Shown: one piece after another, positions 13,209 through 29,702 of the stretch | Layout of the letters: every line of letters begins with the position of its first letter | Position numbering within the stretch: the first letter of the stretch is position 1 | Assembly: GCA_965261345.1 (NCBI GenBank) | Contig: OZ253449.1 | Coordinates: forward strand, 1,312,001 to 1,376,000 | Direction: 5' to 3' | Source of the DNA: Chloroflexota bacterium | Lineage (GTDB): Bacteria > Chloroflexota > UBA11872 > VXNJ01 | DNA: 64,000 nt | The notes under the pieces: generated by a model | What the model was told of the DNA's origin: nothing | What the model saw: only the letters and a program-made list of their open reading frames with translations | Databases searched by the model: none | Made by a program: the position numbers and the translations under genes

Positions 13209-14960
13209 GATCACGTCCCCTGGAGTGGTGTAAGAGCACCAGCTTGATCAACTAAGCCAACGCGATGACAAAGGGCCATCGTGTAAACCTCTACGGAGTC
13301 ACTTCACTTACTTCGTCGAGGAACCATCGATGGCCCAACTTGATTATCAGACCTTGCTTGCCCTTATCGCCAAGCAAGGGTTTGACAGCAGCGAATTCGT
13401 CCGCAGCGCCGTACGGCACGCCTACCAGGAACTTATTGACGCCGGCCTGGCCGAAAACATCGGCGCCAAACCGCACGAGCGCAACGGCGAGCGTCGCAAT
13501 CGGCTTTGATGGCTCGCGCAAGCGCACCCTCTCCACCCGGGCGGGCGACATCGAGATTGCCCTGCCCAAGCTGCGCCAAGGCAGCTACTACCCCGAGTTC
13601 TTGGAGCGGCGGCGCCGCATCGACCAGGCCCTCTACGGCGTCATCATGACCGCCTACAGCAAGGGCGTCTCCACCCGCAAGGTCGACAAGCTGGTGGAGG
13701 CGATGGGAGTAAACGCCGGGATCTCCAGGTCCGAGGTGTCAAGGATCTGCAAAGGCATCGACGAGCTGGTCAATGCCTTCCGCGAACGCGATCTCGCGCA
13801 TACGACCTTCCCGTACCTCTATCTCGACGCCACCTACGTAAAAGCCCGAAACGCGCATGCGGTAAGGTCGCGGGCGGTGGGCATAGCAATGGCCATAAAC
13901 GAGGACGGCCATCGCGAGCTGCTGGGGCTTGCAATCGGCCACAGCGAAGCGCAGGGCTTCTGGGAGGACTTGATCGCCTCCCTGGTAACGCGCGGTCTAT
14001 CCGGCGTGCGGCTGGTGATCTCCGATGGGAACCAAGCCATCGGCAACGCGGTGACAAAGCTTATTCCCGAGGCCGCCTGGCAGACGTGCAGGACACACTT
14101 TGGGCGCAATCTTCTGCCAAGGGTCAGAAGCGGCGACCGCGGGCTGGTGGCAGCCGGACTGGCGTCGCTGTTTGGGCAGGCTGACAAGCAGAGCGCCATG
14201 GACGCCTTCGGAGATTTCGCCGATCGCTTAGAGCGCAAGTATCCGGAACTGTCCACGATCCTCGAGGACTCCGAGATCGCCCTGACTGCCTACACCGCCT
14301 TCCCGCCTTCGCACTGGCGCAAGATCTGGTCCACCAATCCCCTGGAGCGCGTTATGGGCGAGCTAAAGCGCCGCACCCGGGTAGTGCAGCTCTTCCCCGA
14401 CGATGACTCGGTCCTGCGCCTTATCGGAGCGGTCCTAATTGAGCAGAACGACGAATGGCTCGCATCCGAGCGCCGCTATATGTCCAGGCACTCGATGGCC
14501 TTAATCGGCCAACCCCCATCTCCGGGAGAGAGGCAGTCCCCGCTGGCATTGCCGGCGGGGTAGCAACCGCCGCCGGGGGCCGTAGCGCCCTCCAGGGAAA
14601 TGGAAGGTCGTGCGCCCGGCTGGGCGCTAGCTGGGCCTAAATAAGGATCACTAGCGTCGAATTGGGCCGACTTTCCCAACAAACCCGGCCCGGTGAGCCC
14701 GAATGCGAGCCGTTACGGGCCGGGGCCGGCCTTCGGACCCATGGAAGCCCATATGACCACGACCGCGCCATGGTCGCAACTGGCAAAATGATGGACGCCT
14801 TACCGGCAGTCGCCGTCACAGCCAAGGACTCGAAACTCCCCCAGCAAGCCCCAGCAACCATCTGCCGGCCCTGCCGGCAGCTGCAACTCTGTAGAGTTGC
14901 AGCTGCCGAACCCCTAAACGTAGAGGACGGCTTAGTTACACCACACCGTGGGACACGTCC
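13209..14960 (+). mobile_element. IS256-family element; transposase 13330-14563 frameshifted near 13505
   Basis: YLYLDATYVK, LVISDG, WQTCRTHF, IWSTNPLER. Terminal IRs GATCACGTCCCCTGGAGTGGTGTAA / TTACACCACACCGTGGGACACGTCC; 8-bp TSD CAATCGTG at 13201 and 14961. Confidence 0.92.
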
Positions 14961-15536: not shown

Positions 15537-16478
15537 GTGAAACACGGGGCATTCGATTTGTATTTGGATGAGCTACACAGCCTTATCGGCACTCTCAAAG
15601 ACCGAATGTCGCAACACCGCGTCTTGTTGGGCAAGAACGAATCCGCAACGCGCTACTCGTTGATTGATCCACTACTCGGAGCGTTGGGCTGGGACTTATC
15701 CGATCCGACGCAGGTGGAACCTGAGTATCAAGCAGGACCTGGGCGCGCTGACTACGCTTTGATGGTCGATGGCGGAACTCCCAGCATCATCGTCGAGGCA
15801 AAAAATTTGGGTCGGCGCGTCGATGACGGTATCAGCCAATCAATCAGCTATTGCATTGAACGCGGGATCAAATACTTCGTTGTCACTAACGGTGACAGAT
15901 GGGAGGTTTACGAGACGCACAATCCGGTTCCAATTGCAGAAAAACTGGTTGTTGAATTCAGTGTTAGGAACGCGTCCCAGGGCACGATCATGAAAATGCT
16001 CTGGCTTTGGCGCGGAAATTTCAAATCCGACACACCGGCAGTCACAAACGTGCCGCAAAATAAACTCGCTGAACGTGGGCAGGCAGTTGCGACCAAACGA
16101 ATTCGTCAGAAATCAGTTCCTTTGGATCAATTCACTCCCTCAATTGGTCAAAAAGAGCCGAATTCAATACTTTTTCCAGATGGATCGAGTACGGCGCCCG
16201 GCACATGGATCGAGTTTCAAACGGCCATCGTAAGTTGGTTGATTGAAACAGGACACCTGTCCGCATCAGATTGTCCGATTACAGCCGGGGGCAAGGCCTA
16301 CTTAGTTCATTCACAACCAGTAACGCGATCGGGCGCTCGTTTTCGGAGGCCAAGATCTGTTAATGACTTGTGGATTGAGGCTAATCGAAGCGCGTCAGAT
16401 CATGTTAAAACCGCCAAGCGAGTTTTGGAAGATAGAGGCGTAACACTCCAGAGCGTTCGTGTGGTGGCGACCGATTGA
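15537..16478 (+). CDS. HsdR_N-type restriction-endonuclease-fold protein with C-terminal putative DNA-binding domain
   Basis: NESATRYSLIDPLLGALGWD, EPEY, RADYAL, IVEAK, VVTNGDRWEVY. Confidence 0.8.
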   Translation: MKHGAFDLYLDELHSLIGTLKDRMSQHRVLLGKNESATRYSLIDPLLGALGWDLSDPTQVEPEYQAGPGRADYALMVDGGTPSIIVEAKNLGRRVDDGISQSISYCIERGIKYFVVTNGDRWEVYETHNPVPIAEKLVVEFSVRNASQGTIMKMLWLWRGNFKSDTPAVTNVPQNKLAERGQAVATKRIRQKSVPLDQFTPSIGQKEPNSILFPDGSSTAPGTWIEFQTAIVSWLIETGHLSASDCPITAGGKAYLVHSQPVTRSGARFRRPRSVNDLWIEANRSASDHVKTAKRVLEDRGVTLQSVRVVATD

Positions 16479-16684
16479 CGCCGATGTTCTTCGCGAATGT
16501 TGGCGGATCAACAACCGCCAATCTGGCCACGGAAAATTTATCGCATTAGTCCGCACCGGGTAAGTGCGAACATATCGCCTTCAGCAATTTGATCCATACC
16601 GACATCGAGCGTTAGCAGCTCAGGATCAACGACCACAACACTAAATCGCACTAATTGCCAGGAAAACTGAGGGATCCCATCTCC

Positions 16685-19600
16685 ATGACAGCGCTCAATT
16701 CCGAACCGCGTCGGCATGATTTTGCAGAGGTATTAGCCGAATTGAGGAGCGTTGCGCGGTCCAAAATGGCCAGGGGCAGGCTGTTTGAGCGCTTAATGTG
16801 CGAGTACTTGCGGAAAGACCCAATTTGGGGTCCACGATTTGCGTCGGTGCAGTTGATTGACGGCAAAGACTTTGGAGTTGACCTAGAGGCGATATCCGCC
16901 GACGGCAAATCGGTTTGGGCAATTCAGTGCAAATTTCACGGGCCAAGCACACGAATTAATAAGAAGGCGGTTTCCAGCTTTTTAGCGGAGCTGGGTAAAA
17001 CCAAGTACACGCACGGCCTAATCATTGACACCGGTGCCGAATGGGGTGCGACCGCCTCCAGGGCAATACGCGGACTCGATAAACCAGTTCACTTGCTCAA
17101 ATTCCTCGATTTAGAGGGTAGTGATGTCGATTGGCCCGATTTGGCTGGCGACCTTAAGGACTTGCAGGTAAGGCGAGGCAGTTACGAATTGCGGCCCCAC
17201 CAAAAAAGCGCAATCGAGGACGTATTACTGGGGCTTAGTAAATCCGGCCGTGGCAAGTTGATCATGGCATGTGGGACAGGGAAAACCCTGACCGCGTTAC
17301 GGCTGGCCGAAGAGTACGTTGGTCAGGGCAACACGTGCCTCTACTTGGTCCCTTCGATCGCGTTAATGCAACAAACTTTGCGCGAGTGGGCCAGCCAACA
17401 GAGGATTCCACAAAGCTATGTTGGCATTTGTTCTGATGTGCGCGCTGGGCGCATTGCCGAAGATATCGATCTCTTTGAACTTGAGCTCCCCGTCACGACT
17501 GATCCGCGCCAGATTAGGTCGGTTCTCAAGTCCGACCCAGGGGGCCAATTGCGCGTAGTTTTTTGCACGTACCAAAGCATCGAATTAGTTATCGAAGCGC
17601 AGCGTGATGAGTGCGTAAAAGAATTCGACTTGATCATTTGTGACGAGGCTCACAGAACTACTGGGGTGGAAAAACCGGGCGACAAACAATCACCATTCGT
17701 TCGTGTACACGACGATTCAATGGTCAGGGGGAGGAAGCGGCTCTACATGACCGCGACGCCGCGCCTCTATGCTTCCTCGTCAAAAAAGAGGGCAAACGAC
17801 CAAAACTTCGACATTTATTCCATGGACGATGAAGCTACATACGGGCCGGAATTTCACCGATTGGACTTTGGTGAAGCGGTAAACAAAGGCTTATTGACTG
17901 ACTACAAGGTGCTTGTACTTCACATGCACCAGCGTTACGCTGCGCGGTTGTTGGCAAAAACGTTGGACAAGCATGCTGATGGCCCCGGTGTCGGGAGCAA
18001 AACGTTGAGCGAATTGATGACGGTAGATGATGCCGCAAGGATTGCCGGTTGCTGGACGGGATTGCTAGATCCAGAATTGGCCGCTCCGGCCGCCGAATAT
18101 AAGCATTTGCCAAGTCCGAAATTAAAAAGGGCTATCGCATTCAGCAGCAGGATTAATGCATCGAAACTGATCGAGTCAAGTTTTGAAGTCGTCGCCAACA
18201 CGATTACTCCAGATCGTGTTGGCCAGATGCAGGTGAAACATGTAGATGGCACCAACAACGCGCTGAATCGCAGCAGAGATATAGCTTGGCTGCGCCACGG
18301 TGATGAATCTTCTTGCCGAATGTTGACCAACGCGCGCTGTTTGTCCGAGGGAATTGATGTTCCGGCGCTGGACGCCGTCCTGTTTATGAATCCGCGGCGT
18401 TCACATATTGATATTGTCCAAGCCGTCGGGCGTGTCATGCGAAAAAGCCCCGGCAAGCAATACGGATACATCATTTTGCCGGTAATCGTCGGTGCCAGAT
18501 CAAATGTTGGCGAAATGATGTTGCATTCAGACTATGACGTGGTATGGGATGTACTACGCGCGTTGCGATCCCACGACGGTCGTCTCGACATTGAAATAAA
18601 TCAAATTGACTTGAACAATAAGCTCCCAGACCGGATCTCATTTGTCGGATTGGACGTAGGGGAGGATGATGAATTCGTCGTTGAGCCACTTGTAACCAAA
18701 AACGCGACTCAACTCGAATTGGGATTGTTGCCAGAGGCTATGTACGCGGCAATCGTAGACAAGGTTGGGGATCGCCAATATTGGGACCGCTGGGCACGCG
18801 ACATCGGAGAAATTGCGAGTCGCTGCACGGCCAGAATTCGAGCTTTGCGAGAAGGGAATTCGGAAATCGCTACCGAGTTTTCTGACTTTCACAATGGCAT
18901 CAAATCGATTACCAATGACTCGGTCCAGGCAAGTGAAGTCGAATCCATGCTCGCGCAGCATCTCATCACTAGGCCCGTATTCGAAGCGCTGTTTGCTGAG
19001 AGCAAATTTGTCGAAGAGAACCCGGTATCAAAGGCGATGCAGCGGATGGTTGAAATTCTGCAGCGCCGCGGATTGGATGCGGAGATTGAGAAGTTCCAAA
19101 GTTTCTACGACAGCGTTAGGAATCGCGTTTTTGGAGTAAGCGACGCTGCAGGAAAACAGGTAGTCCTGAAAGAGCTGTACGAAAAATTCTTCAAGACTGC
19201 GTTTGCGCAAACGACCGATCGACTCGGAATCGTATATACACCTAACGAAATTGTCGATTTCATACTCCGATCAGCAGACGACATTGTGCGTGAGCAATTT
19301 GGCGCTTCCGGGTTGTCCGCGGATGGTGTCCACGTGCTAGAGCCATTTGCCGGCACCGGAACTTTCCTTGTCAATCTGATCCAAGATAAGTCGTTGCTCG
19401 GCGAATCTGACGTGGCCAGAAAATTTGATCGCGAGTTACACGCAAACGAGATATTGCCCCTTGCGTACTACATTGGCGCGTTGAATATCGAGCGAGCCTT
19501 CCAAGGCCGGTGCCCTGGAATCGACTACAGATCATTCACCGGCATGGTGTTAGCGGATACGTTCAATCTCAGTGAAGGCGCAAGATCTCAGCGCCAGTTT

Positions 19601-21457
19601 CCACGCAAGTACTTTGGCGAAAACAACGAAAGAGCTGAATCTCAAGAGAATGAAGATATTCGGGTTTTTCTGTCGAATCCGCCGTGGTCGGCTTGGCAAT
19701 CCGATGCCCGTGACGAAAACCGGAACGTTAGCTACCCAGCTCTAGACGCCCGGATCAGAGAGACTTATGTCGCCAACAGCAACGCAACTCAACGCGCTAG
19801 CCTGTACGACTCTTACATTCGGGCCATTCGCTGGGCCTCCGACCGAATGGGCGATCGTGGACTGATCGCATTCGTCACGAACAACGGTTGGCTCGACGGG
19901 AGGGCAGCAGCCGGATTGCGGCATTGCCTGGCCAGTGAATTTAATGAGATTTATGTCTTAGACCTGCGGGGCAACGCAAGAACTAGGGGATTGTTTCGTC
20001 AAAAGGAGGGAGGAGGCGTATTCGACCAAGGATCGCGCGCCGGAGTATGCATCGTAATTCTTATTAGGTCTAATCCGGTCAACGGTCATGCCAAGGCTCG
20101 CATCAATTACCAAGCGGTTGACGACTACCTGACGACTGCCCAAAAGCTTGCGGCGGTCGAGGTTGCAGCGTCAATCAATGGAATTGACAAATGGCAGGAG
20201 ATTCACCCCGACGACCACGGCGATTGGCTAAACCAGCGTGACCCGCGATTCTTAGCATACGTGCCGATTGGTAGCAAAGCGGCCAAGCGTAGGTTGGCGA
20301 GTCGATCAGTCTTTCGACTTTTTGGCCGCGGTTTGGCGACCAGCCGCGACGAATACGCATACAGCTTCGATGAAGAAGCGCTGGCAGCACGTTCTATAAG
20401 AATGATTATGTTCTACAACCAGTTTTTGGGCGCGGAGGCGCCCCCGGCAAACGACGAATTGATCAAGTGGCACCACGACGTTCTCTCAAATGCCTCCCGG
20501 AAGATTCCTGCCCGATGGGAGAGTGACTCAATCCGAACTGTTGCCTACCGACCGTTCGTCAATCAATTTGCTCATTTCGACATTATTTTTAACGCGCGTC
20601 ACTACCAACTCGGAGCGATGTATCCAACGGCATCAACCATAAACAGAGTTATATCTGTAACCGGCAAAGCTAGCGGTGCAGGATTCAGCGCACTCGTGTC
20701 CAATTTATTACCGGATTTGCACGTTTTGGGTGCGACGCAAGTTTTCCCACGTTGGAGGTTTGAAAGGAGACAGCTCGGTGTTGGCACCTTGCCGCTGGAC
20801 GCAGGGACAACTGATACTGCCGATGGCAACGGCGAATTCGTCCGAATCGACAACATCACTGATTGGGCGTTGAGCGAGTTTCGACTCAAATATGGCGATT
20901 CGTCGATATCCAAAGACGACATTTTTTCGTATGTCTACGGGATCCTCCATCACCCTGTCTTCCGCGAGAGGTTCGCCAACGACTTGTTCAAGGATCTTCC
21001 GCGCATTCCGTTTGCGCCCGACTTCCGCGCGTTTTCAGAAGCCGGGATGAAACTTGAAGCGCTGCACTGTGACTATGAGTCCCTTAGCGGGTACCCATTA
21101 AAGATTGAGACTGCAAGTGGGTTTGATCCAGGGTCTGACTCCCACTTCTCGATTGAGAAGATGACTTGGGAGAAGGGGGCAGGCAAAAGGAAATTGCGGA
21201 TTAACGATTACTTGACAGTTTCCGGAATACCTGACTCAGCCCACGAGTACGTAGTGAACGGCCGCTCTCCGCTGGAGTGGCTGGTCGAGCGCTGGTGTTT
21301 GAAATTGCACGAACGATCCGGGATCGTCAACGATCCGAATCGGTGGTTCGACGATCCCCGTAGCGTCGTCAAGCTGGTCAAGCAAGCAACCCAAGTCGCC
21401 GTCGAATCAGTCAAATTGATCAACGAGCTCCCGGATCAATTCGACTTAGGGAGCTAG
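16685..21457 (+). CDS. Type ISP restriction-modification enzyme (LlaGI/LlaBIII-like): Mrr nuclease, SF2 ATPase, N6A MTase, TRD
   Basis: GVDL...AIQCKF, MACGTGKT, DEAHRTTG, QAVGRVMR, GIVYTP, LEPFAGTGTF, NPPW, DLRGNAR, IFSYVYGILH, DLPRIPF, YVVNGRSPLEW. Confidence 0.95.
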   Translation: MTALNSEPRRHDFAEVLAELRSVARSKMARGRLFERLMCEYLRKDPIWGPRFASVQLIDGKDFGVDLEAISADGKSVWAIQCKFHGPSTRINKKAVSSFLAELGKTKYTHGLIIDTGAEWGATASRAIRGLDKPVHLLKFLDLEGSDVDWPDLAGDLKDLQVRRGSYELRPHQKSAIEDVLLGLSKSGRGKLIMACGTGKTLTALRLAEEYVGQGNTCLYLVPSIALMQQTLREWASQQRIPQSYVGICSDVRAGRIAEDIDLFELELPVTTDPRQIRSVLKSDPGGQLRVVFCTYQSIELVIEAQRDECVKEFDLIICDEAHRTTGVEKPGDKQSPFVRVHDDSMVRGRKRLYMTATPRLYASSSKKRANDQNFDIYSMDDEATYGPEFHRLDFGEAVNKGLLTDYKVLVLHMHQRYAARLLAKTLDKHADGPGVGSKTLSELMTVDDAARIAGCWTGLLDPELAAPAAEYKHLPSPKLKRAIAFSSRINASKLIESSFEVVANTITPDRVGQMQVKHVDGTNNALNRSRDIAWLRHGDESSCRMLTNARCLSEGIDVPALDAVLFMNPRRSHIDIVQAVGRVMRKSPGKQYGYIILPVIVGARSNVGEMMLHSDYDVVWDVLRALRSHDGRLDIEINQIDLNNKLPDRISFVGLDVGEDDEFVVEPLVTKNATQLELGLLPEAMYAAIVDKVGDRQYWDRWARDIGEIASRCTARIRALREGNSEIATEFSDFHNGIKSITNDSVQASEVESMLAQHLITRPVFEALFAESKFVEENPVSKAMQRMVEILQRRGLDAEIEKFQSFYDSVRNRVFGVSDAAGKQVVLKELYEKFFKTAFAQTTDRLGIVYTPNEIVDFILRSADDIVREQFGASGLSADGVHVLEPFAGTGTFLVNLIQDKSLLGESDVARKFDRELHANEILPLAYYIGALNIERAFQGRCPGIDYRSFTGMVLADTFNLSEGARSQRQFPRKYFGENNERAESQENEDIRVFLSNPPWSAWQSDARDENRNVSYPALDARIRETYVANSNATQRASLYDSYIRAIRWASDRMGDRGLIAFVTNNGWLDGRAAAGLRHCLASEFNEIYVLDLRGNARTRGLFRQKEGGGVFDQGSRAGVCIVILIRSNPVNGHAKARINYQAVDDYLTTAQKLAAVEVAASINGIDKWQEIHPDDHGDWLNQRDPRFLAYVPIGSKAAKRRLASRSVFRLFGRGLATSRDEYAYSFDEEALAARSIRMIMFYNQFLGAEAPPANDELIKWHHDVLSNASRKIPARWESDSIRTVAYRPFVNQFAHFDIIFNARHYQLGAMYPTASTINRVISVTGKASGAGFSALVSNLLPDLHVLGATQVFPRWRFERRQLGVGTLPLDAGTTDTADGNGEFVRIDNITDWALSEFRLKYGDSSISKDDIFSYVYGILHHPVFRERFANDLFKDLPRIPFAPDFRAFSEAGMKLEALHCDYESLSGYPLKIETASGFDPGSDSHFSIEKMTWEKGAGKRKLRINDYLTVSGIPDSAHEYVVNGRSPLEWLVERWCLKLHERSGIVNDPNRWFDDPRSVVKLVKQATQVAVESVKLINELPDQFDLGS

Positions 21458-21459
21458 GA
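19942..21459 (+). repeat. Arm A of the mosaic inverted repeat (3' part of the Type ISP gene)
   Basis: Blocks 19942-19954, 20039-20243, 20339-20474, 20600-20656 and 20738-21459 match the reverse complements of 25001-25013, 24712-24916, 24481-24616, 24296-24352 and 23490-24211. Confidence 0.95.
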
Positions 21460-21662
21460 ATTGCAAGCGCGAATTGGAGCCGACCCAATCTGACAGATGA
21501 AATCCACCTTCATTGAGCCCAGCATCAAGACTCGAGTTAAATTTTTTTGACAATTTACGCGTCCAAGCGCGCATGTTACGAGTAAAGGCAACGTTTTTGC
21601 GGCAACCGGGGCGCATTCAAGCCGCCGCAACGCTAATGATGGAAGATTTCGCCACCCGGCTC

Positions 21663-23020
21663 TGGCCGGCTCCCCCTCATTGGTACCAGAGGGAATGTGA
21701 ATAATCTGGTTCCAACGAAAGGGGACTGCAATGGCGAAGCGAAAGTACTCGCCCGAACAGATCATCAACAAGCTCCGGGCCATAGAGCTTGGTGTCGCCC
21801 AGGGCGACACCGTCGAGCAGAGCTGCCGCAAGGCGGCGATCAACGTCCAGACCTATTACCGCTGGCGCTCCCGCTACGGCGGGATGACGCTCGCCGAGGC
21901 CAAGGAGAACAAGCGCCTGCGCGAGGAGAACAAGCGCTTAAAACACGCGGTGGCCGATCTAACGCTCGACAACCAGATCCTGAAAGAGACGGCCTCGGGA
22001 AACTTCTAAGCCCGGAGCGGCGGCGCAAGTGCGTCGACCACGTCCGGGCCAAGTTCCCGGTGTCTGAACGAAGAGCCTGCCGGGTGCTGGGCCAATCGCG
22101 CCGCACCCAGCGCTACATCCCAAAACCCGATCCGGAAGAGGACAACCTCACCGCCGAGATCAGGATGCTTTCCCTCAAGCACCCCCGCTATGGCTACAAG
22201 CGCATCACCGCCCTGCTTAAACACTCGGGCTGGAAACTGAACCGCAAACGGGTATTGCGCATCTGGCGCGCGCAGGGCCTTAAGGTCCCGATCCGAAAGG
22301 TCAAGAAGTCGCGCCTCTGGCTGGAGAACGGACGCTCTACGCGGCTTATGGCCGAGCGCCCGAATCACGTCTGGGCCTACGACTTTACCTACGAGCGCAC
22401 CGAGGACGGCAGACCACTGCGGATCCTTACCGTGGTCGATGAGTTCACCCGCGTGGCCTTAGCGGCCCGGGCGGCCCGATCCTTCCCTGCCCGGGACGTG
22501 ATCGAGACAATCGCCGACCTCATGCTCATCCACGGGGTCCCCGAGCACATCCGCTCTGACAACGGCCCCGAATTTACCGCCAAAGCGATAAGGCAATGGC
22601 TATCTGGCAACAGCGTCAAGACCGTCTACATAAAGCCCGGAGCGCCCTGGGAGAACGCCTATGCGGAATCGTTCATATCCAAGCTCCGCGACGAGCTCCT
22701 GGACCGCGAGATATTCTTCACCCTCGAAGAAGCCAGGGTGATGCTGGAGCGCTTCCGGATCGACTACAACACCGTGCGCCCGCACTCGGCGCTCGGCTAC
22801 CTGGCGCCCCTGGAAGCGATCGAGGCGGCGGCGTGATGGATCAACTTCCGGTTGCAATCCGGCTGCTGCTGGCCGGCCTCATCGACGGCCCGGCGTCCGT
22901 CTTCGTGGGTGCTACGGGCGGCCGCAATATCAGCTTCGCCGCCAGCTCTCCTGCAGGAGAGCTGGCGGCACCCTCCCACAAGACAATGTCTCACCTGGTA
23001 CCAAAACCGGGGACCTGCCA
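21663..23020 (+). mobile_element. IS3-family element (orfA 21731-22009, orfB to 22836)
   Basis: OrfA MAKRKYSPEQII; -1 slippery site GGGAAAC near 21998; OrfB WAYDF, VVDEFTR, RSDNGPEF, PWENAYAESF, RPHSALGY. TG...CA imperfect IRs with TGGTACCA; 4-bp TSD GCTC. Confidence 0.93.
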
Positions 23021-23491
23021 GCTCGACGAGCGTGATGCAGGGTAGAGAGTGTTAGATGCCCTGAGTAGCCAACGAACCGCCGCAAATCCTACTTGGCACT
23101 GGTCGTTGGCGACGGTCTCCCAGAACATGGTCGATAGAGCGTCGTATAGCTGATCGCCTACAAGCCTTTAGAACTTTGTTCCGGTGATGACTATCAGGGT
23201 CATCAATCTCCTCCAGGCGACCGGACGGTGCTGCCAAAGCCCTACCCTACGCACCGCTTTTGCTGGCTATTAATTCGATTTACTCTTGATATTCAGCACG
23301 GTTCCAAACTCACTGCAATCGCGGAGTCGGTGGGCAAACTGGGGAGATTGAACCAAAATGGTGGGCGATTTACGCTTCGATAGTGCAGGAACCCAATGGA
23401 TTGGCACACTGTACGAGGACCATTTACGTTGGCAATGATTCCGGGTCTATTTCCGAGGTTTGACTAATAAGACTGGGAGTGCCTCGCCATC

Positions 23492-25013
23492 CTAGCTCCC
23501 TAAGTCGAATTGATCCGGGAGCTCGTTGATCAATTTGACTGATTCGACGGCGACTTGGGTTGCTTGCTTGACCAGCTTGACGACGCTACGGGGATCGTCG
23601 AACCACCGATTCGGATCGTTGACGATCCCGGATCGTTCGTGCAATTTCAAACACCAGCGCTCGACCAGCCACTCCAGCGGAGAGCGGCCGTTCACTACGT
23701 ACTCGTGGGCTGAGTCAGGTATTCCGGAAACTGTCAAGTAATCGTTAATCCGCAATTTCCTTTTGCCTGCCCCCTTCTCCCAAGTCATCTTCTCAATCGA
23801 GAAGTGGGAGTCAGACCCTGGATCAAACCCACTTGCAGTCTCAATCTTTAATGGGTACCCGCTAAGGGACTCATAGTCACAGTGCAGCGCTTCAAGTTTC
23901 ATCCCGGCTTCTGAAAACGCGCGGAAGTCGGGCGCAAACGGAATGCGCGGAAGATCCTTGAACAAGTCGTTGGCGAACCTCTCGCGGAAGACAGGGTGAT
24001 GGAGGATCCCGTAGACATACGAAAAAATGTCGTCTTTGGATATCGACGAATCGCCATATTTGAGTCGAAACTCGCTCAACGCCCAATCAGTGATGTTGTC
24101 GATTCGGACGAATTCGCCGTTGCCATCGGCAGTATCAGTTGTCCCTGCGTCCAGCGGCAAGGTGCCAACACCGAGCTGTCTCCTTTCAAACCTCCAACGT
24201 GGGAAAACTTGGCAATGGTGAACGACCTCCAAATCTGGAACCATTTTTGACGCGAACGCGGAGAAGGCACGAGTTCCGCCGCCTCTACCCTGAATAGATA
24301 TAACTCTGTTTATGGTTGATGCCGTTGGATACATCGCTCCGAGTTGGTAGTGTTCGCCGTTAAATAGTGGATCAAAGTGGACGTCTTGCCTGACAAAGGG
24401 TCGGTGGAGCGCATGTCGAAGTGAGGCGCCAGGTTCAAAAGAAGCTTCCATGCCCCTCCTGACATTTGACAACGATTTCCGGTGCCACTTGATCAGTTCG
24501 TCGTTCGCCGGGGGCGCCTCCGCGCCCAAAAACTGGTTGTAGAACATAATCATTCTTATAGAACGTGCTGCCAGCGCTTCTTCATCGAAGCTGTATGCGT
24601 ATTCGTCGCGGCTGGTTTTCAGTCCGCCGCCGTACAACCCAAAGATTGCTTGTTCAGCAAAGGCGCCCTTGTTCCTTGGATCACCAATAGCCGAATAGGT
24701 TTGAAATCGCAGGTCACGCTGGTTTAGCCAATCGCCATGGTCGTCGGGGTGAATCTCCTGCCATTTGTCAATTCCATTGATTGACGCTGCAACCTCGACC
24801 GCCGCAAGCTTTTGGGCAGTCGTCAGGTAGTCGTCAACCGCTCGGTAATTGATGCGAGCCTTGGCATGACCGTTGACCGGATTAGACCTAATAAGAATTA
24901 CGATGCATACTCCGGCACGAGAAGATTGCCCGAACACCTTCCCGCCTTCGCGTTTCCACGTTTCGCCGGAAGTCCTCGCGTTTCCTCTCAAGTCATAGAT
25001 ATAAATCTCATTA
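23492..25013 (-). other. Silent alternative MTase-C/TRD cassette of the Type ISP enzyme (open frame, no ATG or RBS)
   Basis: About 500 uninterrupted codons colinear with the C-terminus of 16685-21457, with four replaced segments. In-frame stops lie just upstream (~25050). Confidence 0.9.
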
Positions 25014-25171
25014 TGTTGAATCTGCGAGAAGATCGGGATCGATACTTATCAGTCAAAGTGGAAATGTGACGCGATCAAGCGCCTTGAAGAATTTCACATT
25101 CCGTATGGATAATCCGCCTGAAGGCGTTTCGGTTAAGGTTCCACAGCGGCAACGTTGGGGACTCGACAACA

Positions 25172-26050
25172 TCAATCGTTGTGCGATTGAGCGCGCACGA
25201 ATTGCTCAGCCAACTTACATTGCCCGATGTCCAGGATGACCATGCCCAATTGCATTTGGCTATGCCCTCCTTCGATCTGGGCCAAGATGGGCGTTCCTTC
25301 GAAAGAATCAAAATCTCCGACATATTCCTTGAAGACCTCGACGCTCGCTGCCAAGTCAGGAACATCTTCTTCCAACAACGCGGTTGCGATTCGAGTTAAG
25401 CATTCCATTCCAACGTGGATTTGCTCCGCTAGGTCTATATCGGTTTGCAGACCTTCAATCTCCTCGCGAAGCTTCGCCCATTCTTTGTACTCTTTGAGGA
25501 GCCGCTCCGGCGATTCACCCAGGAAGACACTGCCAACTACCTCGTCTTCATCACCGAGCCCGGAATTCACTACTACGCGCGATAGCGGCGGGCCGACGTG
25601 CTGTATGTAATTCCTGAATTTGTATAGAAATCGGTAAGCAAAGTAGTCGTCGAATTCTGCGCTGCATGCGGCTTCCCAGGTAGTCAACCGGTCTCCGCCG
25701 TCGCGGTCGTCGCGTCGTTTGAGATCGGTGGCTGCGTGATCCAGAAACATTCGCATGCTGGTCAGGAAATTGACAATCGCTGTTGTCAATTGAGAGGTCA
25801 ATAGCGGGAATTCAGATTGCTGAACGGATTGTTGACTAGAAGCCCTAGTTACAAGACTCGTTTCCAAATTGACAAACGTCCGGTAGTTTTCAGCCAGCAC
25901 TGCAAACGCGACTCGTCTGAATACTCTCCAAATGCAACTGTTTGCTTCCGCCAATCGCTCACGTTCGCCGGTCGAAAGACTTCGAACCTGTTTGATTCCG
26001 ATTTGGTCGCCCTCTTGAGAGACCATGTCCGCGACTATGTATTGGACCAA
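25172..26050 (-). CDS. Putative HEPN-like protein
   Basis: Helical protein with NFLTSMRMFLDH and YKFRNYIQH (RxxxxH); AGGAGGT RBS. Confidence 0.6.
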   Translation of the reverse strand: MVQYIVADMVSQEGDQIGIKQVRSLSTGERERLAEANSCIWRVFRRVAFAVLAENYRTFVNLETSLVTRASSQQSVQQSEFPLLTSQLTTAIVNFLTSMRMFLDHAATDLKRRDDRDGGDRLTTWEAACSAEFDDYFAYRFLYKFRNYIQHVGPPLSRVVVNSGLGDEDEVVGSVFLGESPERLLKEYKEWAKLREEIEGLQTDIDLAEQIHVGMECLTRIATALLEEDVPDLAASVEVFKEYVGDFDSFEGTPILAQIEGGHSQMQLGMVILDIGQCKLAEQFVRAQSHND

Positions 26051-26061
26051 TGCGCGACCTC

Positions 26062-27078
26062 CTATTCGACCAATGATTCATATGCCGATAACCTGTTGAT
26101 CGACAGACGCGTTTCAAATCCTTTTTCCGAGTCGAACTCCAAATGACTGCCATGGGAAATTCCAATCCCCGAGAATTCACTCCCATCCAATACCCGGAAA
26201 GTGGAGAGCATTTTCGTGTACCACAATTCGAAATGTTCAAGAATCGTGATCTGGAATCCATCGGGCAAATCACCCTCAAATGGCCGGGTTTCGCACCCAG
26301 CGACTATTCTTGCATCGATTTCGTGACCCCAAATCGCAATGGAAATCATCGAGCACACGCACGCTGTTACCAATTGATTGAGCCCCAGCAATGGCTTAGG
26401 AGCTGTTGACCTCGCGGCGTTGAGGTTGTTCGAAACGCGTTGGTACCAACCTTCCAGGGTTTCCCCGTCAAGAGGTTGCCTTTGCCGGAAGAATTCGTTC
26501 TTCACGCTCAAAAGCTCGCTGACAGAATTGTCGTCCTGTGCCGAAGCGCATTCGGACGCAGATTTCCAAGATTGAGTTTGCTCAATAGCGGATTTAATCG
26601 GGGCGATCGCGTTTGCAAGCTGGCGCGGCATCCTACGGGCCCGATTTGATATCGCATCGCGTGAATCCGGATATGCGGGACAAAGAGGAATAGGGATGTT
26701 GTCTCGGTCAACAAAAGCTCGCGCGATTTCGGGTCGTTGACCTTCCCAGAACGTGGCGATGATCTCGGAAGTGGAATTCAACGACGTTGGTAGCACACTA
26801 AACAAATTCCGATCATTCGTGGTAATCGTGGCATTGCTCCACTTCTCGTCGTCCAGCTGCGCTAAGTACAACGCATTTGCGTGCCGCACGATGTCCGGGC
26901 CGGCCGCGATCCTTGAATCGTATTCGCGCAACGCTGTCTGTTCACCGGCCGCGGCATTACGTTTAAGTGCACCCCGAATCCTCTGTCCGAAGGCGCTAAC
27001 GCGGATGTCGCTTGCGGCCTGCGCGACCGAGCTTTCCAATTCGGAAGGAGGCGACGCATAAGAAGGATCTGAAGTCAT
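26062..27078 (-). CDS. Hypothetical protein
   Basis: 338-aa ORF ending 11 bp before the HEPN-like gene; no family recognised. Confidence 0.65.
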   Translation of the reverse strand: MTSDPSYASPPSELESSVAQAASDIRVSAFGQRIRGALKRNAAAGEQTALREYDSRIAAGPDIVRHANALYLAQLDDEKWSNATITTNDRNLFSVLPTSLNSTSEIIATFWEGQRPEIARAFVDRDNIPIPLCPAYPDSRDAISNRARRMPRQLANAIAPIKSAIEQTQSWKSASECASAQDDNSVSELLSVKNEFFRQRQPLDGETLEGWYQRVSNNLNAARSTAPKPLLGLNQLVTACVCSMISIAIWGHEIDARIVAGCETRPFEGDLPDGFQITILEHFELWYTKMLSTFRVLDGSEFSGIGISHGSHLEFDSEKGFETRLSINRLSAYESLVE

Positions 27079-27439
27079 CGACTACCTTTGGCTTTTCCAA
27101 AAACCAGCGCAAATAATGAAGTCCGTCTAGTATCGCTTATTGCACGGTATCGATGGGGCGGCTCGCTCCATCCGAACATTCCTGCCTGAGTCGGAAATGG
27201 GCCGAGTGGGATTTACAAACTTTTACAAGAACTGTTCATTTGACGACTAGATATAACCGTGCTTATATCTAGTTGCCCCAAGTAATGGGTGTTCGCAGTT
27301 AGTGTGATCGGCGGGTAATCCACGGCCAGCAATCGCCAGATTGCGGTCGAGCCACCAAAGTCATTCAATTGGTCGCGTTGCTGCCGTCCGATGATGGCTC
27401 GATCCATTGGTGCGCGGTAGATAGTTCCGACTGTATTCG

Positions 27440-27752: not shown

Positions 27753-29702
27753 CTAGCTGGTGAGCGGCTGAGTCGAAAGAATCTGGGCGCACACGTAGTG
27801 TCTGAATGATTCGACATCAGTGTAGAACCGGAATCCGGCCTGACTGGCGATGCTCTCGATCTCAGGGTCCTCGTCGATCAGTAGCGCGACCGGCTGGCTA
27901 TAGCCCTCCTGCAGGCCATTGGGCCAAGCAAGATCGAGCACCGCCAGCAGTTCCCCGGTCTCTCCGTCAACCAATTGATATAGCAATTCGCCTTCGGGTA
28001 AACCTTGGTCAATTACCCAGATATTGGTATCCAACAGCGCTTTTTCTTCATCCTCTTCTTGGATTGCCCCCAAGGAGATTTCTACCCGGTCCAATACGGA
28101 TCCGATTGACTTGGATTCAGGGACTTTGCCCTGCCACAGTTCGTCGAGGAACAGATTTGCGGCCGAGGCGAGCAATTCGCGCCGCGCCGCGAGAAATTGA
28201 CGGTAATTTTCAATCTTCCAAAGTTCCGGGTCCATCGGAATCCAATGTGATTCCATGACACCGGGGTGCTTTGCGGCAAATTCGGGGATGTACTCTGCCG
28301 GGTTCCGATTCGAGACCTTGAGATTGGTGTCCTGGGTGAGGAATGTGAAATTGGCCAGCGCGTTGACTTCCGGGCGCTCGTACCCGAACTTGTACAGGAG
28401 TGATTTGGGGAATATGTGGTGTAGTTGCAGGCTACTTAAACTGCCCAGAATGTGGCTGGACAATTCGAAATCCGTATCCCAATCCCGGGACCGGTTGACC
28501 CTGGTAAGCATGTAGAGCAGCGGATAGAAACGCGACCCGCGACTCCAAGTGGCAAAGTCATTTGGAGTGAGCTTGAGATCGCCACGATTCCGGCGCAAAC
28601 CCGCGATCAATTGTTCTAATCCCTCGCCCGCTCCTTCGATCGCTGCCAAGTCTTGGTTGAGAACCGATTCAGTCGACCCTGAATAGCGTCCCCACAGCAG
28701 TGTGTGGACGTACCAGTACAAAAGCTGGTCGCGTTCGGCCGGGTCAGAAATCGTCCCGCCTCGGTCTTCAAGGTACCTAACCATGAGCGCAAACGAATAG
28801 ACGCTCCCCAAAACCCGGTCATGATCGAGCCCAAGTCGCGACGAAATCGCGTTAAGCAGATAATCTATACGTTTTTCTGCTAGGTTCAATCCATTTTGGA
28901 AATCGCCAGGCCGCACGTTGGCGAGCGCCAGAAATAGCGCTTCGCCGGTCACCAAGCTATTGACGCACCGGAGTAGCCATTCGAGCTTGAAATTGAATCC
29001 GGCCGCCCGCCAGCGATCCAGCCGGGCAATCATTTCACGTCGAGCATCCGGCCAGGCAGCGCAGATCTTGGCCAGCGCGAGATCACCCTTCGACAGCTTT
29101 GTCCCGCCGCTGTTTACGCGGTTGAAAATTTCCACAACGACGTCGACGGTTTTGTCCTCGCCAGTAATCTCCTCGACCAATAAATTAACTTCTCTTGTCG
29201 TGGCAATCCGAGAAAGTCGGTCGTTGTAAATCTCGAAATTGTCCCGCAGCTCCGCGTCATTAAATATCCGGATCATGAACGGCCCGATCCCCTTCTTCAT
29301 GACTTCGGTAACGCTGACCCAACATGGATCCTGGTCCATCCTCATCGGCGCATAAAACTCAAACGCTTCAGTGCGCATGTTGAAGTACAAGCCGGTAAAC
29401 GTTTCGACCTTGCCCTCGAAGAATGGTGGCGCCTGACCACGGAGGATTCCATAGAGTGACGTGATTCGCTGCTGGCCATCCAGGAGCAATGTAACGAAGC
29501 CCGGCTGAAGCGTCTTGTCGCCTCGTGTGTCGACCGCTTCAGTTTTGGCAAGCCATGTCAGCAAGCTACCAACGGGGTGCCGTCGATAAAGCGAATCCAT
29601 CAGCCCCCTCACTTGGTCCCGGTTCCATACGTATCCGCGCTGGAATACAGGGAGTGCCATGGCCCCGGTGTCGATATGGTTGAGAACTGTTTCGATCTTC
29701 AA
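27753..29702 (-). CDS. GmrSD-family (DUF262 + DUF1524/HNH) modification-dependent restriction endonuclease
   Basis: LPVFQRGYVW, LLDGQQRITSL, IFNRVNSGGTKL, LHHIFPK...NALANFTFL...N. Confidence 0.88.
   Translation of the reverse strand: MKIETVLNHIDTGAMALPVFQRGYVWNRDQVRGLMDSLYRRHPVGSLLTWLAKTEAVDTRGDKTLQPGFVTLLLDGQQRITSLYGILRGQAPPFFEGKVETFTGLYFNMRTEAFEFYAPMRMDQDPCWVSVTEVMKKGIGPFMIRIFNDAELRDNFEIYNDRLSRIATTREVNLLVEEITGEDKTVDVVVEIFNRVNSGGTKLSKGDLALAKICAAWPDARREMIARLDRWRAAGFNFKLEWLLRCVNSLVTGEALFLALANVRPGDFQNGLNLAEKRIDYLLNAISSRLGLDHDRVLGSVYSFALMVRYLEDRGGTISDPAERDQLLYWYVHTLLWGRYSGSTESVLNQDLAAIEGAGEGLEQLIAGLRRNRGDLKLTPNDFATWSRGSRFYPLLYMLTRVNRSRDWDTDFELSSHILGSLSSLQLHHIFPKSLLYKFGYERPEVNALANFTFLTQDTNLKVSNRNPAEYIPEFAAKHPGVMESHWIPMDPELWKIENYRQFLAARRELLASAANLFLDELWQGKVPESKSIGSVLDRVEISLGAIQEEDEEKALLDTNIWVIDQGLPEGELLYQLVDGETGELLAVLDLAWPNGLQEGYSQPVALLIDEDPEIESIASQAGFRFYTDVESFRHYVCAQILSTQPLTS

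Follow-up and report, generated by a model that had tools for sequence, protein, structure and literature searches.

Invertons and shufflons of hsdS are known from S. pneumoniae (SpnD39III/ivr), B. fragilis and M. pulmonis, and these loci usually encode their invertase (CreX/PsrA); CreX/PsrA acts on pneumococcal hsdS and Rci acts at sfx sites. In the pilE/pilS system of Neisseria, silent, promoterless and 5'-truncated copies hold mini-cassettes between conserved blocks, and their transfer is RecA-dependent and non-reciprocal. In addition, gene-altering programmed inversions have been reported in Type IIG enzymes, DISARM DrmMI, BREX PglX and hsdS, where they were confirmed by long reads and usually adjoin a recombinase gene; in PglX of L. 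rhamnosus, two nested inversions swap a middle part (Milman, Yelin and Kishony, 2023, PMC9881135). The term "Type ISP" does not occur in the main text of that report. LlaGI and LlaBIII were described as single plasmid genes that differ mainly in the target recognition domain (TRD), with no silent cassette mentioned in the account of their structures (Kulkarni et al., 2016, PMC4872093). In this study, we report, from a Chloroflexota bacterium, a Type ISP restriction-modification gene whose 3' end recurs downstream as a silent copy in inverted orientation (assembly GCA_965261345.1, contig OZ253449.1, positions 1,312,001 to 1,376,000; this whole stretch of 64,000 nucleotides (nt) is hereafter called the window, and positions are counted from its first letter). 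A sequence-only reading of the window had regarded such an arrangement as apparently undescribed for Type ISP enzymes, and our full-text literature search likewise found no account of inversion or cassette switching in this class. The general principle of inverted cassettes in defence enzymes is already known for Type IIG, DrmMI and PglX; the Type ISP case appears to be new.

The locus shares with the hsdS systems the silent inverted partial specificity genes, the repeats of unequal length and the combinatorial alleles, which in hsdS alter the sequence that is methylated and restricted. The difference lies in the unit of exchange, which in hsdS is the whole TRD of a separate S subunit and here is the sub-domain loop of an enzyme of 1590 amino acids (aa) that is also predicted to cut and translocate. 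As the Type IIG (Cj0031-like), DrmMI and PglX loci are presented in the main text of Milman et al. (2023), our locus resembles them in that an expressed gamma-class methyltransferase (MTase)-TRD gene stands beside a truncated inverted copy, and in that several repeats lie within the coding region, so that nested inversions swap parts of the specificity in frame. It is unlike them in having no adjoining recombinase, in belonging to another enzyme class and in that its variable units are single recognition loops which can be placed on solved enzyme-DNA structures. Moreover, the variants of those loci coexist within a clone according to long reads, whereas the variants of the window's locus are known between strains and samples.

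The 1590-aa form of the gene product, starting at the ATG at 16685, is the exact protein on record. Its Pfam domains follow the order Mrr_cat_2, ResIII/DEAD, Helicase_C, ISP_coupler, N6_Mtase and Type_ISP_C, that is, an Mrr-like nuclease, a superfamily 2 ATPase, a coupler, a gamma-class N6-adenine MTase and a TRD, which is the order characteristic of Type ISP. The PADLOC model for a single-chain restriction endonuclease-methyltransferase (REase_MTase_IIG) matched this protein with 1649 bits. Residues 21-1594 of the open reading frame (ORF) aligned to residues 13-1573 of LlaBIII (4xqk, E=0) and LlaGI (5ffj) aligned likewise from end to end; the homology to both enzymes covers the full length and all domains, and the same recognition elements align. 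The Walker A motif MACGTGKT and the motif CDEAHR were found in the translation, both of them aligned to LlaBIII. In the HMMER alignment, the MTase motif of the window's enzyme is SNPPWSAW versus GNPPYSKG in LlaGI, and the Loop I motif is NPPW where LlaGI and LlaBIII have NPPY. On these grounds the 1590-aa protein is firmly predicted to be a Type ISP enzyme of the LlaGI/LlaBIII type. Enzymes of this type are characterised by ATP-driven translocation, by cleavage upon collision and by methylation of a single strand of an asymmetric site.

The last 1.5 kb of this gene is repeated downstream on the opposite strand. The gene's 3' end was aligned by MAFFT with the reverse complement of 23490-25013 and the alignment was read together with a table of exact runs, which gave a mosaic of shared blocks (B0 to B4) and variable segments (V1 to V4; primes denote the silent copy):

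16685-21457, + strand: expressed Type ISP restriction-modification gene, 1590 aa (ORF 16655/16685-21457; Pfam, PADLOC, and alignment to LlaBIII and LlaGI)
19942-19954 (+ strand) and 25001-25013 (- strand): B0, 13/13 nt identical, coding for NEIY; 5' edge of the repeated module
19955-20038, + strand: V1, 84 nt, 54% identical to V1'; MTase Loop III
20039-20243, + strand: B1, 205 nt, 2 mismatches, at 20112 (Q/R) and 20218
20244-20338, + strand: V2, 95 nt, 51% identical to V2'; its 3' end is TRD Loop IV
20339-20474, + strand: B2, 136 nt, 2 mismatches, at 20449 and 20459; ATAA-N6-TTAT at 20396-20409
20475-20599, + strand: V3, 125 nt versus 128 in the silent copy, 50% identical; helix H at its start, Loop V at its end
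20600-20656, + strand: B3, 57/57 nt identical; ATAA-N6-TTAT at 20639-20652
20657-20737, + strand: V4, 81 nt versus 84 in the silent copy, 48% identical; its 3' end is Loop VI
20738-21459, + strand: B4, 722/722 nt identical; rest of the TRD core, guide subdomain, stop codon and 2 nt
23490-25013, - strand: silent inverted cassette, a 5'-truncated copy of the gene's last 1.5 kb; Pfam Type_ISP_C only
Silent arm, first half, - strand: B0' 25013-25001, V1' 25000-24917, B1' 24916-24712, V2' 24711-24617
Silent arm, second half, - strand: B2' 24616-24481, V3' 24480-24353, B3' 24352-24296, V4' 24295-24212, B4' 24211-23490

The shared blocks are 98.6-100% identical, synonymous sites included, and the variable segments 48-54%. 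The homology is limited by B0 on one side and ends 2 nt past the stop codon on the other. V3 and V4 are each 3 nt shorter than V3' and V4', and every indel is a multiple of 3; because these length differences amount to 3 nt each, the reading frame is kept. The silent frame has 517 open codons, 507 of them homologous, and covers the end of the MTase domain and the TRD, without the nuclease, the ATPase or the N-terminal part of the MTase; it is annotated as a 481-aa ORF (P0364). Both copies score as a full Type_ISP_C domain, with 284 bits for the active and 268 bits for the silent one. The repeat search returned 20738-21459 and 23490-24211 as inverted arms, 722 nt long and 100% complementary, with weaker arms farther out. 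A perfect inverted repeat of 722 nt cannot arise by chance, and no further copies of the module exist in the whole genome. The sequence-only reading had described an inverted, open copy of the last ~1.5 kb without a start, shared blocks of 13, 205, 136, 57 and 722 nt with their mismatches, and four pairs of variable peptides; the copy was recovered at those very positions, the block lengths and mismatch counts were exact in the MAFFT alignment, and all four peptide pairs were correct on translation. The in-frame exchange that it had proposed is allowed by the layout of blocks and segments.

The variable segments were then placed on the known structures by HMMER alignment to LlaGI 5ffj and LlaBIII 4xqk, which had high posterior probability at the loop stretches. 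Residue N854 of the 5ffj chain is N1018, and therefore 164 was added to the chain index to obtain LlaGI numbering. In the two enzyme-DNA crystal structures, Loops I-III belong to the MTase and Loops IV-VI plus helix H to the TRD; as set out there, Loop III reads target position -1, Loop VI (with Loop I) +3, Loop IV +4 and Loop V +5, while +6 is read by helix H or Loop V (Kulkarni et al., 2016). In the window's enzyme (1590-aa numbering) these elements fall as follows:

Loop III, residues 1095-1118, RGNARTRGLFRQKEGGGVFDQGSR: in V1
Loop IV, residues 1215-1222, RGLATSRD: end of V2
Helix H, residues 1264-1272, HDVLSNASR: start of V3
Loop V, residues 1302-1309, FNARHYQL: end of V3
Loop VI, residues 1343-1351, PDLHVLGAT: end of V4

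Loops I and II are situated 5' of B0, outside the cassette, and do not vary between alleles. The alignment to LlaBIII is in the same register, with K1231, D1318/R1319 and N1360 on matching columns. The base-contacting positions differ between the two copies as listed here in LlaGI numbering, with the residue of the window's protein in brackets:

1125: R in the active copy (R1105), W in the silent copy; V1
1131: G in the active copy (G1111), K in the silent copy; V1
1226: A in the active copy (A1218), K in the silent copy; V2
1286: H in the active copy (H1264), R in the silent copy; V3
1287: D in the active copy (D1265), K in the silent copy; V3
1326: A in the active copy (A1304), G in the silent copy; V3
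1327: R in the active copy (R1305), E in the silent copy; V3
1368: H in the active copy (H1346), E in the silent copy; V4
1372: A in the active copy (A1350), H in the silent copy; V4

The intercalating or stacking residues R1119, F1133 and R1138 are retained in both copies. Among the residue-base correlations given for the family, K1131 goes with C:G at -1, K1226 with G:C at +4, R1286 with G:C at +6 and R1327 with C:G at +6, and H1368 reads G at +3 (Kulkarni et al., 2016); some of the contact-residue states of the two copies fit these correlations. R1125 is predicted to go with G:C, and by this partial code the target would be expected to change at -1 and +4 between the window's strain and a strain with V1'V2'V3V4. 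The earlier suggestion that V1-V4 hold the base readers is thus borne out by alignment to two solved enzyme-DNA complexes, and the two alleles would be expected to read different target sequences. The variable segments each match their own part of the target, and therefore re-assortment should change the recognition sequence position by position.

The two arms are separated by a spacer of 2030 nt, of which 668 bp are original and the rest is an inserted element of the IS3 insertion sequence family, which the earlier reading did not mention, with its target duplication:

21460-21662: left part of the spacer (sequence)
21663-23020, + strand: IS3-family element, 1358 bp (rve/HTH_21 in Pfam, transpos_IS3 in NCBIfam)
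23021-23489: right part of the spacer (sequence)

The ends of the element are TG...CA, and it is flanked by a duplicated 4-bp target (GCTC, at 21659-21662 and 23021-24); at least six near-full copies occur elsewhere in the genome. Open frames in the original 668-bp spacer do not exceed 89 codons. Sequencing-run evidence was taken from Logan contigs (k=31); six runs of two studies hold the stretch, and four of them (X1, X3, X4 and X6) were compared. Contigs that join 21658 directly to 23021, i.e., the empty site, exist in X1, X3 and X6 and thus in both studies, and therefore the insertion is polymorphic and recent. The IS3 element is a passenger outside any mechanism of exchange. Contigs of X1 and X3 connect the active B4, at its end, with the left spacer, and the left spacer directly with the right spacer and the silent B4; for X6 the joint of left to right spacer is the only one listed. 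The two arms are physically linked.

Re-assorted forms of the gene were found in close relatives. The haplotypes of two contigs, of 773,577 nt and 56,898 nt, were read from their called proteins. On the former lies P0003 (1329 aa), which was returned by a protein-collection search with residues 1090-1600 and shares its 90% cluster with the window's protein. Its first 1086 residues have two substitutions with respect to the window's protein; thereafter it continues with NEIYIYDL, V1', the R of the silent B1, V2' and the active V3, and it ends with VT-RQS-stop, as is expected from one extra C in ACCGG. P0242 (253 aa), on the same contig, is the remainder of that gene, with an active-type V4 end. 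The expressed gene of this near-identical strain would hence be V1'V2'V3V4. P0363 and P0362, on the 56,898-nt contig, fall in the same protein cluster. P0363 begins inside a V1 of the active type, and its B1 carries the R of the silent type; V2', V3' and a V4' that is breakable by a one-base insertion come next. P0362 begins with a garbled V4' end that looks composed of both V4 and V4', with frameshifts that compensate each other, and continues into B4. The start of P0362 may be a polishing product of a mixed read population, or a third allele. As predicted from these proteins, the copy on the 56,898-nt contig is V1V2'V3'V4'.

A further combination was observed in both runs of the second study (X4 and X6), in which a contig links the upstream part of the expressed gene across B0 to V1' on the opposite strand. 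In X6 the joint is 19941 to 25013 (depth 7, 76 nt on the short side), and in X4 it is 19954 to 25000, on a contig of 1006 nt that continues through V1', B1 and V2' into B2. Because the 13 nt of B0 are shorter than k=31, these joints need real reads and cannot be artefacts of the graph. The X4 joint 20656 to 24295, from V3-B3 to V4'-B4 and the right spacer, is weak: it is seen in a single contig, at depth 2, across a repeat whose 57 nt exceed k. Overall, V1 is paired with V2 and V2', V2' with V3' and V3, and V3 with V4 and perhaps V4'; the variants among close relatives comprise at least three re-assorted combinations (P0003/P0242, P0363/P0362 and the X4/X6 contigs). V1 and V2 of the window's expressed type had depth 0 in X4 and ~1 in X6, V2 being undetected in X4 and nearly absent from X6, and such gaps in cover prove nothing. 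A joint of 17754 to 17840 (skipping 85, side 21) and loose ends near 17734-17860 were set aside, as they look like helicase genes of other organisms on a conserved stretch.

X1 and X3 are the runs with the window's arrangement, and no strand-changing joint is listed among their Logan contigs. Contigs end there exactly at 19954 (X1 record 1 and X3 record 10), and X1 record 8 begins at 24984. A k=31 unitig simulation on the window, with and without added junctions, gave these ends:

Reference alone: upstream unitig ends at 20068, flank unitig starts at 24887
Reference plus upstream-B0-V1': upstream end at 19954, flank start at 24984
Reference plus both reciprocal junctions: upstream end at 19954, flank start at 25001

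Since the observed ends match the simulation with one junction, sample S1 also holds upstream-V1' molecules. By the same comparison of contig ends with the simulation, the reciprocal flank-B0-V1 molecules were not detectable in S1, where the upstream contig has a depth of 8.4 and the outer flank of 5.1. Because the reciprocal junction is missing and the depths differ, two strains in S1 are as likely as variants within a clone. Our locus is like pilE/pilS in its silent truncated copy and in its variable segments between conserved blocks, and a non-reciprocal transfer of that kind would fit S1. It is unlike pilE/pilS in the protein and its purpose, in having one silent copy instead of many and in the inverted orientation, which also permits reciprocal inversion.

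An inverted cassette is clearly not typical of Type ISP genes. At the order level, 21 of 41 genomes, the window's own included, have a Type_ISP_C match, and a close opposite-strand pair is present in the window's genome only; none of the six genomes of the same genus has any such match. In 80 genome-contig and 80 metagenome-contig loci around Type ISP-like TRDs, no second TRD match on the opposite strand was found; these samples are biased, as the first 80 are mostly metagenome-assembled genomes (MAGs) of sponge symbionts. The sequence-only reading had proposed a search for inverted C-terminal cassettes in other genomes, and such cassettes appeared neither among these 160 loci nor, the window's own genome apart, among the matches listed for 401 genomes of the phylum. 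The metagenome-contig scan for closer strains gave nothing above 36% identity, and a protein search with the silent ORF at near lengths gave no match above 51% identity and many TRD-only ORFs on long contigs.

Other partial copies were seen in the course of these searches. P0213 (553 aa, TRD-only) is 96% identical to the end of P0112 (1604 aa, full Type ISP), both lying on 6,419,486-nt contigs, and the genome-contig scan returned mostly Poribacteria MAGs that are 56-83% identical to P0213. All the recognition loops of P0213 and P0112 are the same and their C-terminal guide subdomain differs, the opposite of the window's pattern; this 96% pair was therefore rejected as an equivalent case. In a Poribacteria MAG (L053:9702-14320), a second MTase end plus TRD of 1.9 kb lies directly downstream in tandem, on the same strand and 69% identical, and shorter same-strand C-terminal fragments occur in L013, L015, L019 and L084. 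In addition, frames of 417-567 aa with Type_ISP_C alone and no second match listed nearby (G257:C1:3307215, G357:C7:364440, G373:C3:288398, G168:C1:1851504 and others) could be broken genes or stand-alone TRD cassettes.

With respect to the machinery of exchange, no match to PF00589 or PF00239 was found within the 64-kb window, and hence no invertase of these families. Across the genome, PF00589 is matched twice (at 0.72 and 2.12 Mb), both times by proteins that are Xer-like by NCBIfam and score below the equivalog cut-offs, and PF00239 four times, by large XisF/Ccr-like serine recombinases (0.03-1.06 Mb); the nearest of them is more than 270 kb from the locus at 1.33 Mb. A RecA gene is present. 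The motif ATAA-N6-TTAT occurs at six sites in the window versus 0.19 expected, a number reached in none of 100 shuffles. Five of the six fall within the locus, four of them in the B2 and B3 blocks of the two arms and one in the silent B0; the copy in the active B0, at 19941, is one mismatch off. The copies in B0, B2 and B3 have a common right arm, TTAT-R-T(T)CT, and the B0 site is in another frame than those of B2 and B3; because the sites sit in two reading frames, protein coding fails to explain the motif. Since the motif was derived post hoc from B0 and B3, the match in B2 is its sole independent test, with an estimated expectation of ~0.01 in the remaining 1069 nt of the blocks. Neither B1 nor B4 contains it.

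Genome-wide, ATAA-N6-TTAT occurs 21 times versus 4.4 expected from composition, and many of these sites belong to a CATAAT-N4-ATTATG family. Palindromes of this separate family, (A)CATAAT-N4-ATTATG(T), are repeated around the genome (21 sites, e.g., 1562, 2340337, 2355782 and 2374856) and look operator-type. A perfect palindrome with 10-nt arms, CTAGATATAA-N6-TTATATCTAG, lies at 27253-27266 of the window; its arm, AGATATAA/TTATATCT, corresponds to the good arm in the B0 and B3 motif copies. At genome positions 1,376,402-1,376,418, ~400 nt past the end of the window, the silent B0 and its flank are exactly repeated over 17 nt (AACATAATGAGATTTAT), at the start of an ORF (MAKHNEIYQ...); this copy is inverted with respect to the silent B0 and 39 kb away from it, with no further homology around. 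The B0 13-mer with up to 3 mismatches was tried as a marker and discarded as too loose (16 matches versus 6.4 expected).

Considering the above, the explanation that we regard as reasonably probable is that the locus is a two-copy specificity cassette of a single-polypeptide Type ISP enzyme, exchanged by homologous recombination. The expressed gene would carry one set of target-reading elements and the promoterless, 5'-truncated inverted copy would store a second, with the identical blocks between the elements serving as substrates for recombination; identity blocks of 57-722 nt are long enough for this. A crossover in one block would invert the DNA between the arms and swap all downstream segments in frame, and gene conversion would transfer single segments. 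We infer as the pathway general homologous recombination (RecA) at a low rate, visible between strains, without a dedicated high-rate invertase, and the chimeras are expected to be active and to differ in specificity. A stronger version, a loop-level combinatorial switch with four mini-cassettes (for positions -1, +4, +5/+6 and +3) and up to 16 working specificities, either without a dedicated invertase or through Xer-like enzymes at ATAA-N6-TTAT cores, is possible but doubtful. The combinatorial shuffling suggested by the sequence-only reading is thus supported at the level of strains, in the haplotypes of relatives; a shufflon with programmed successive inversions would be a less likely form of it, there being no recombinase gene in the locus.

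Several observations weigh against exchange by homologous recombination as an operating system. At B0, where the identity spans 13 nt and one side lacks homology, RecA has a poor substrate. Apart from a 54-nt dispersed repeat in L110, a DNA inverted repeat of at least 50 nt involving the TRD was found at no locus of the 160, of which 109 extend 2.5 kb or more downstream, and although 113 of 401 genomes of the same phylum (tallies that include the unpublished G174 and G356) match at E <= 1e-15, an adjoining opposite-strand pair is present, among the matches listed (all but 37), in the window's genome only. The P0003/P0242 gene has a one-base frameshift at the start of V4, and V4' is frameshifted in the copy on the 56.9-kb contig; the frameshifts could stem from assembly errors or mark dead genes. 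The haplotypes that cross blocks of at least 57 nt in assemblies of unstated method, as well as the B3 joint of X4, could be assembly chimeras. The one-sided junctions of S1 suggest a second strain or gene conversion rather than plain inversion, and no switching within a clone was seen in the assembled contigs of the four runs.

The explanation ranked second, which we consider unlikely, is a site-specific shufflon in which a Xer-like tyrosine recombinase encoded elsewhere inverts the DNA at short core sites with high frequency. It would account for the enrichment of ATAA-N6-TTAT, with five of its six sites in the blocks of the locus, and for the longer right arm common to three sites in two reading frames; the joints observed lie at B0 and B3 and the crossover of P0003 in B2, a crossover within 13 nt as at B0 is more typical of site-specific recombination, and the genome encodes two Xer-like recombinases. 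The post hoc definition of the motif from B0 and B3 speaks against it, as does P0363, which requires a crossover in B1, a block that lacks the motif as B4 does. The 21 sites of the genome versus 4.4 expected include many of another palindrome family, no heterogeneity within a clone was seen in the assembled contigs, and the absence of an adjoining recombinase gene departs from the usual arrangement reported for programmed inversions (Milman et al., 2023).

The pair of arms could also be a static relic, that is, a partial 3' duplication that plays no part in specificity switching and is either in decay or held similar through gene conversion from time to time, the differences between strains being due to rare recombination or import of alleles. 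The absence of an invertase gene from the locus, the insertion element in its spacer, the low-G+C island with IS256 and IS3 elements, the absence of inverted copies from 160 other loci, the frameshifted copies of other assemblies and the TRD-only ORFs elsewhere that differ outside the reading loops (P0213 versus P0112) would all agree with a relic. Yet 507 homologous codons have stayed open, with ~390 nt of them diverged by ~50% and indels of 3 nt only, and the silent copy still scores as a full TRD; the confinement of the divergence to the base-reading elements beside 722 identical nt is the pattern of a cassette and not of decay, so that we hold a relic to be quite unlikely. The fusion of the alleles of two strains in one contig was likewise weighed, given that sample S1 holds more than one haplotype and that the IS3 insertion is polymorphic. 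It is extremely improbable, since independent k=31 contigs in X1 and X3 link the active arm, the spacers and the silent arm, X6 has the spacer joint, the outer junctions are covered in X1 (record 1 up to 19954 and record 8 from 24984) and the genome is one contig of 2.39 Mb.

The source genome is a single contig of 2,393,548 bases with a G+C content of 61.7%. Across 15-31 kb of the window the G+C content is 50-55%, and in the flanks 60-68%. The following neighbours were annotated in this region:

13265-14563, + strand: IS256/Mutator-type transposase (family match)
Upstream of the Type ISP gene: gene with an HSDR_N domain (Pfam)
25172-26050 and 26062-27078, - strand: two flank ORFs of 292 aa and 338 aa, outside the silent cassette
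27753-29702, - strand: GmrSD-like Type IV restriction gene (PADLOC HEC-05)

The Type ISP locus sits in a low-G+C defence island with mobile elements. The two flank ORFs (292 aa and 338 aa) had no match in Pfam, NCBIfam or PADLOC, and each is the sole member of its 90% cluster in a collection of 15 billion proteins. The upstream HSDR_N gene is also present on the 773-kb contig, and the flank ORFs, being singletons, seem to be missing from the other strain; positions 25268-25900 have depth 0 in the X4 and X6 contigs, a hole in cover that is no proof. A scan of 16300-25400 for promoters and terminators gave fewer matches than in shuffles and nothing usable.

Designed changes of restriction-enzyme specificity have largely failed, and the engineering of such specificity has been called an "unaccomplished challenge" (Kulkarni et al., 2016). 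In this regard, individual base-reading loops of a structurally solved family appear, from the sequences compared here, to be swapped between two alleles in nature, with at least three re-assorted combinations among wild strains. This gives a small, defined set of up to 16 chimeras in which the partial amino-acid code proposed for Type ISP enzymes would be testable position by position. If the exchange by recombination is true, specificity switching would be extended to a class in which nuclease, motor, methylase and reader belong to one protein that methylates a single strand, and this would raise the question of how the cell survives a switch of specificity. If the locus is instead a relic, it would still be a clear example of concerted evolution restricted to those parts of the TRD that do not read bases. 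If the loop-level switch were true, the natural chimeras would show that the recognition code of Type ISP enzymes is modular.

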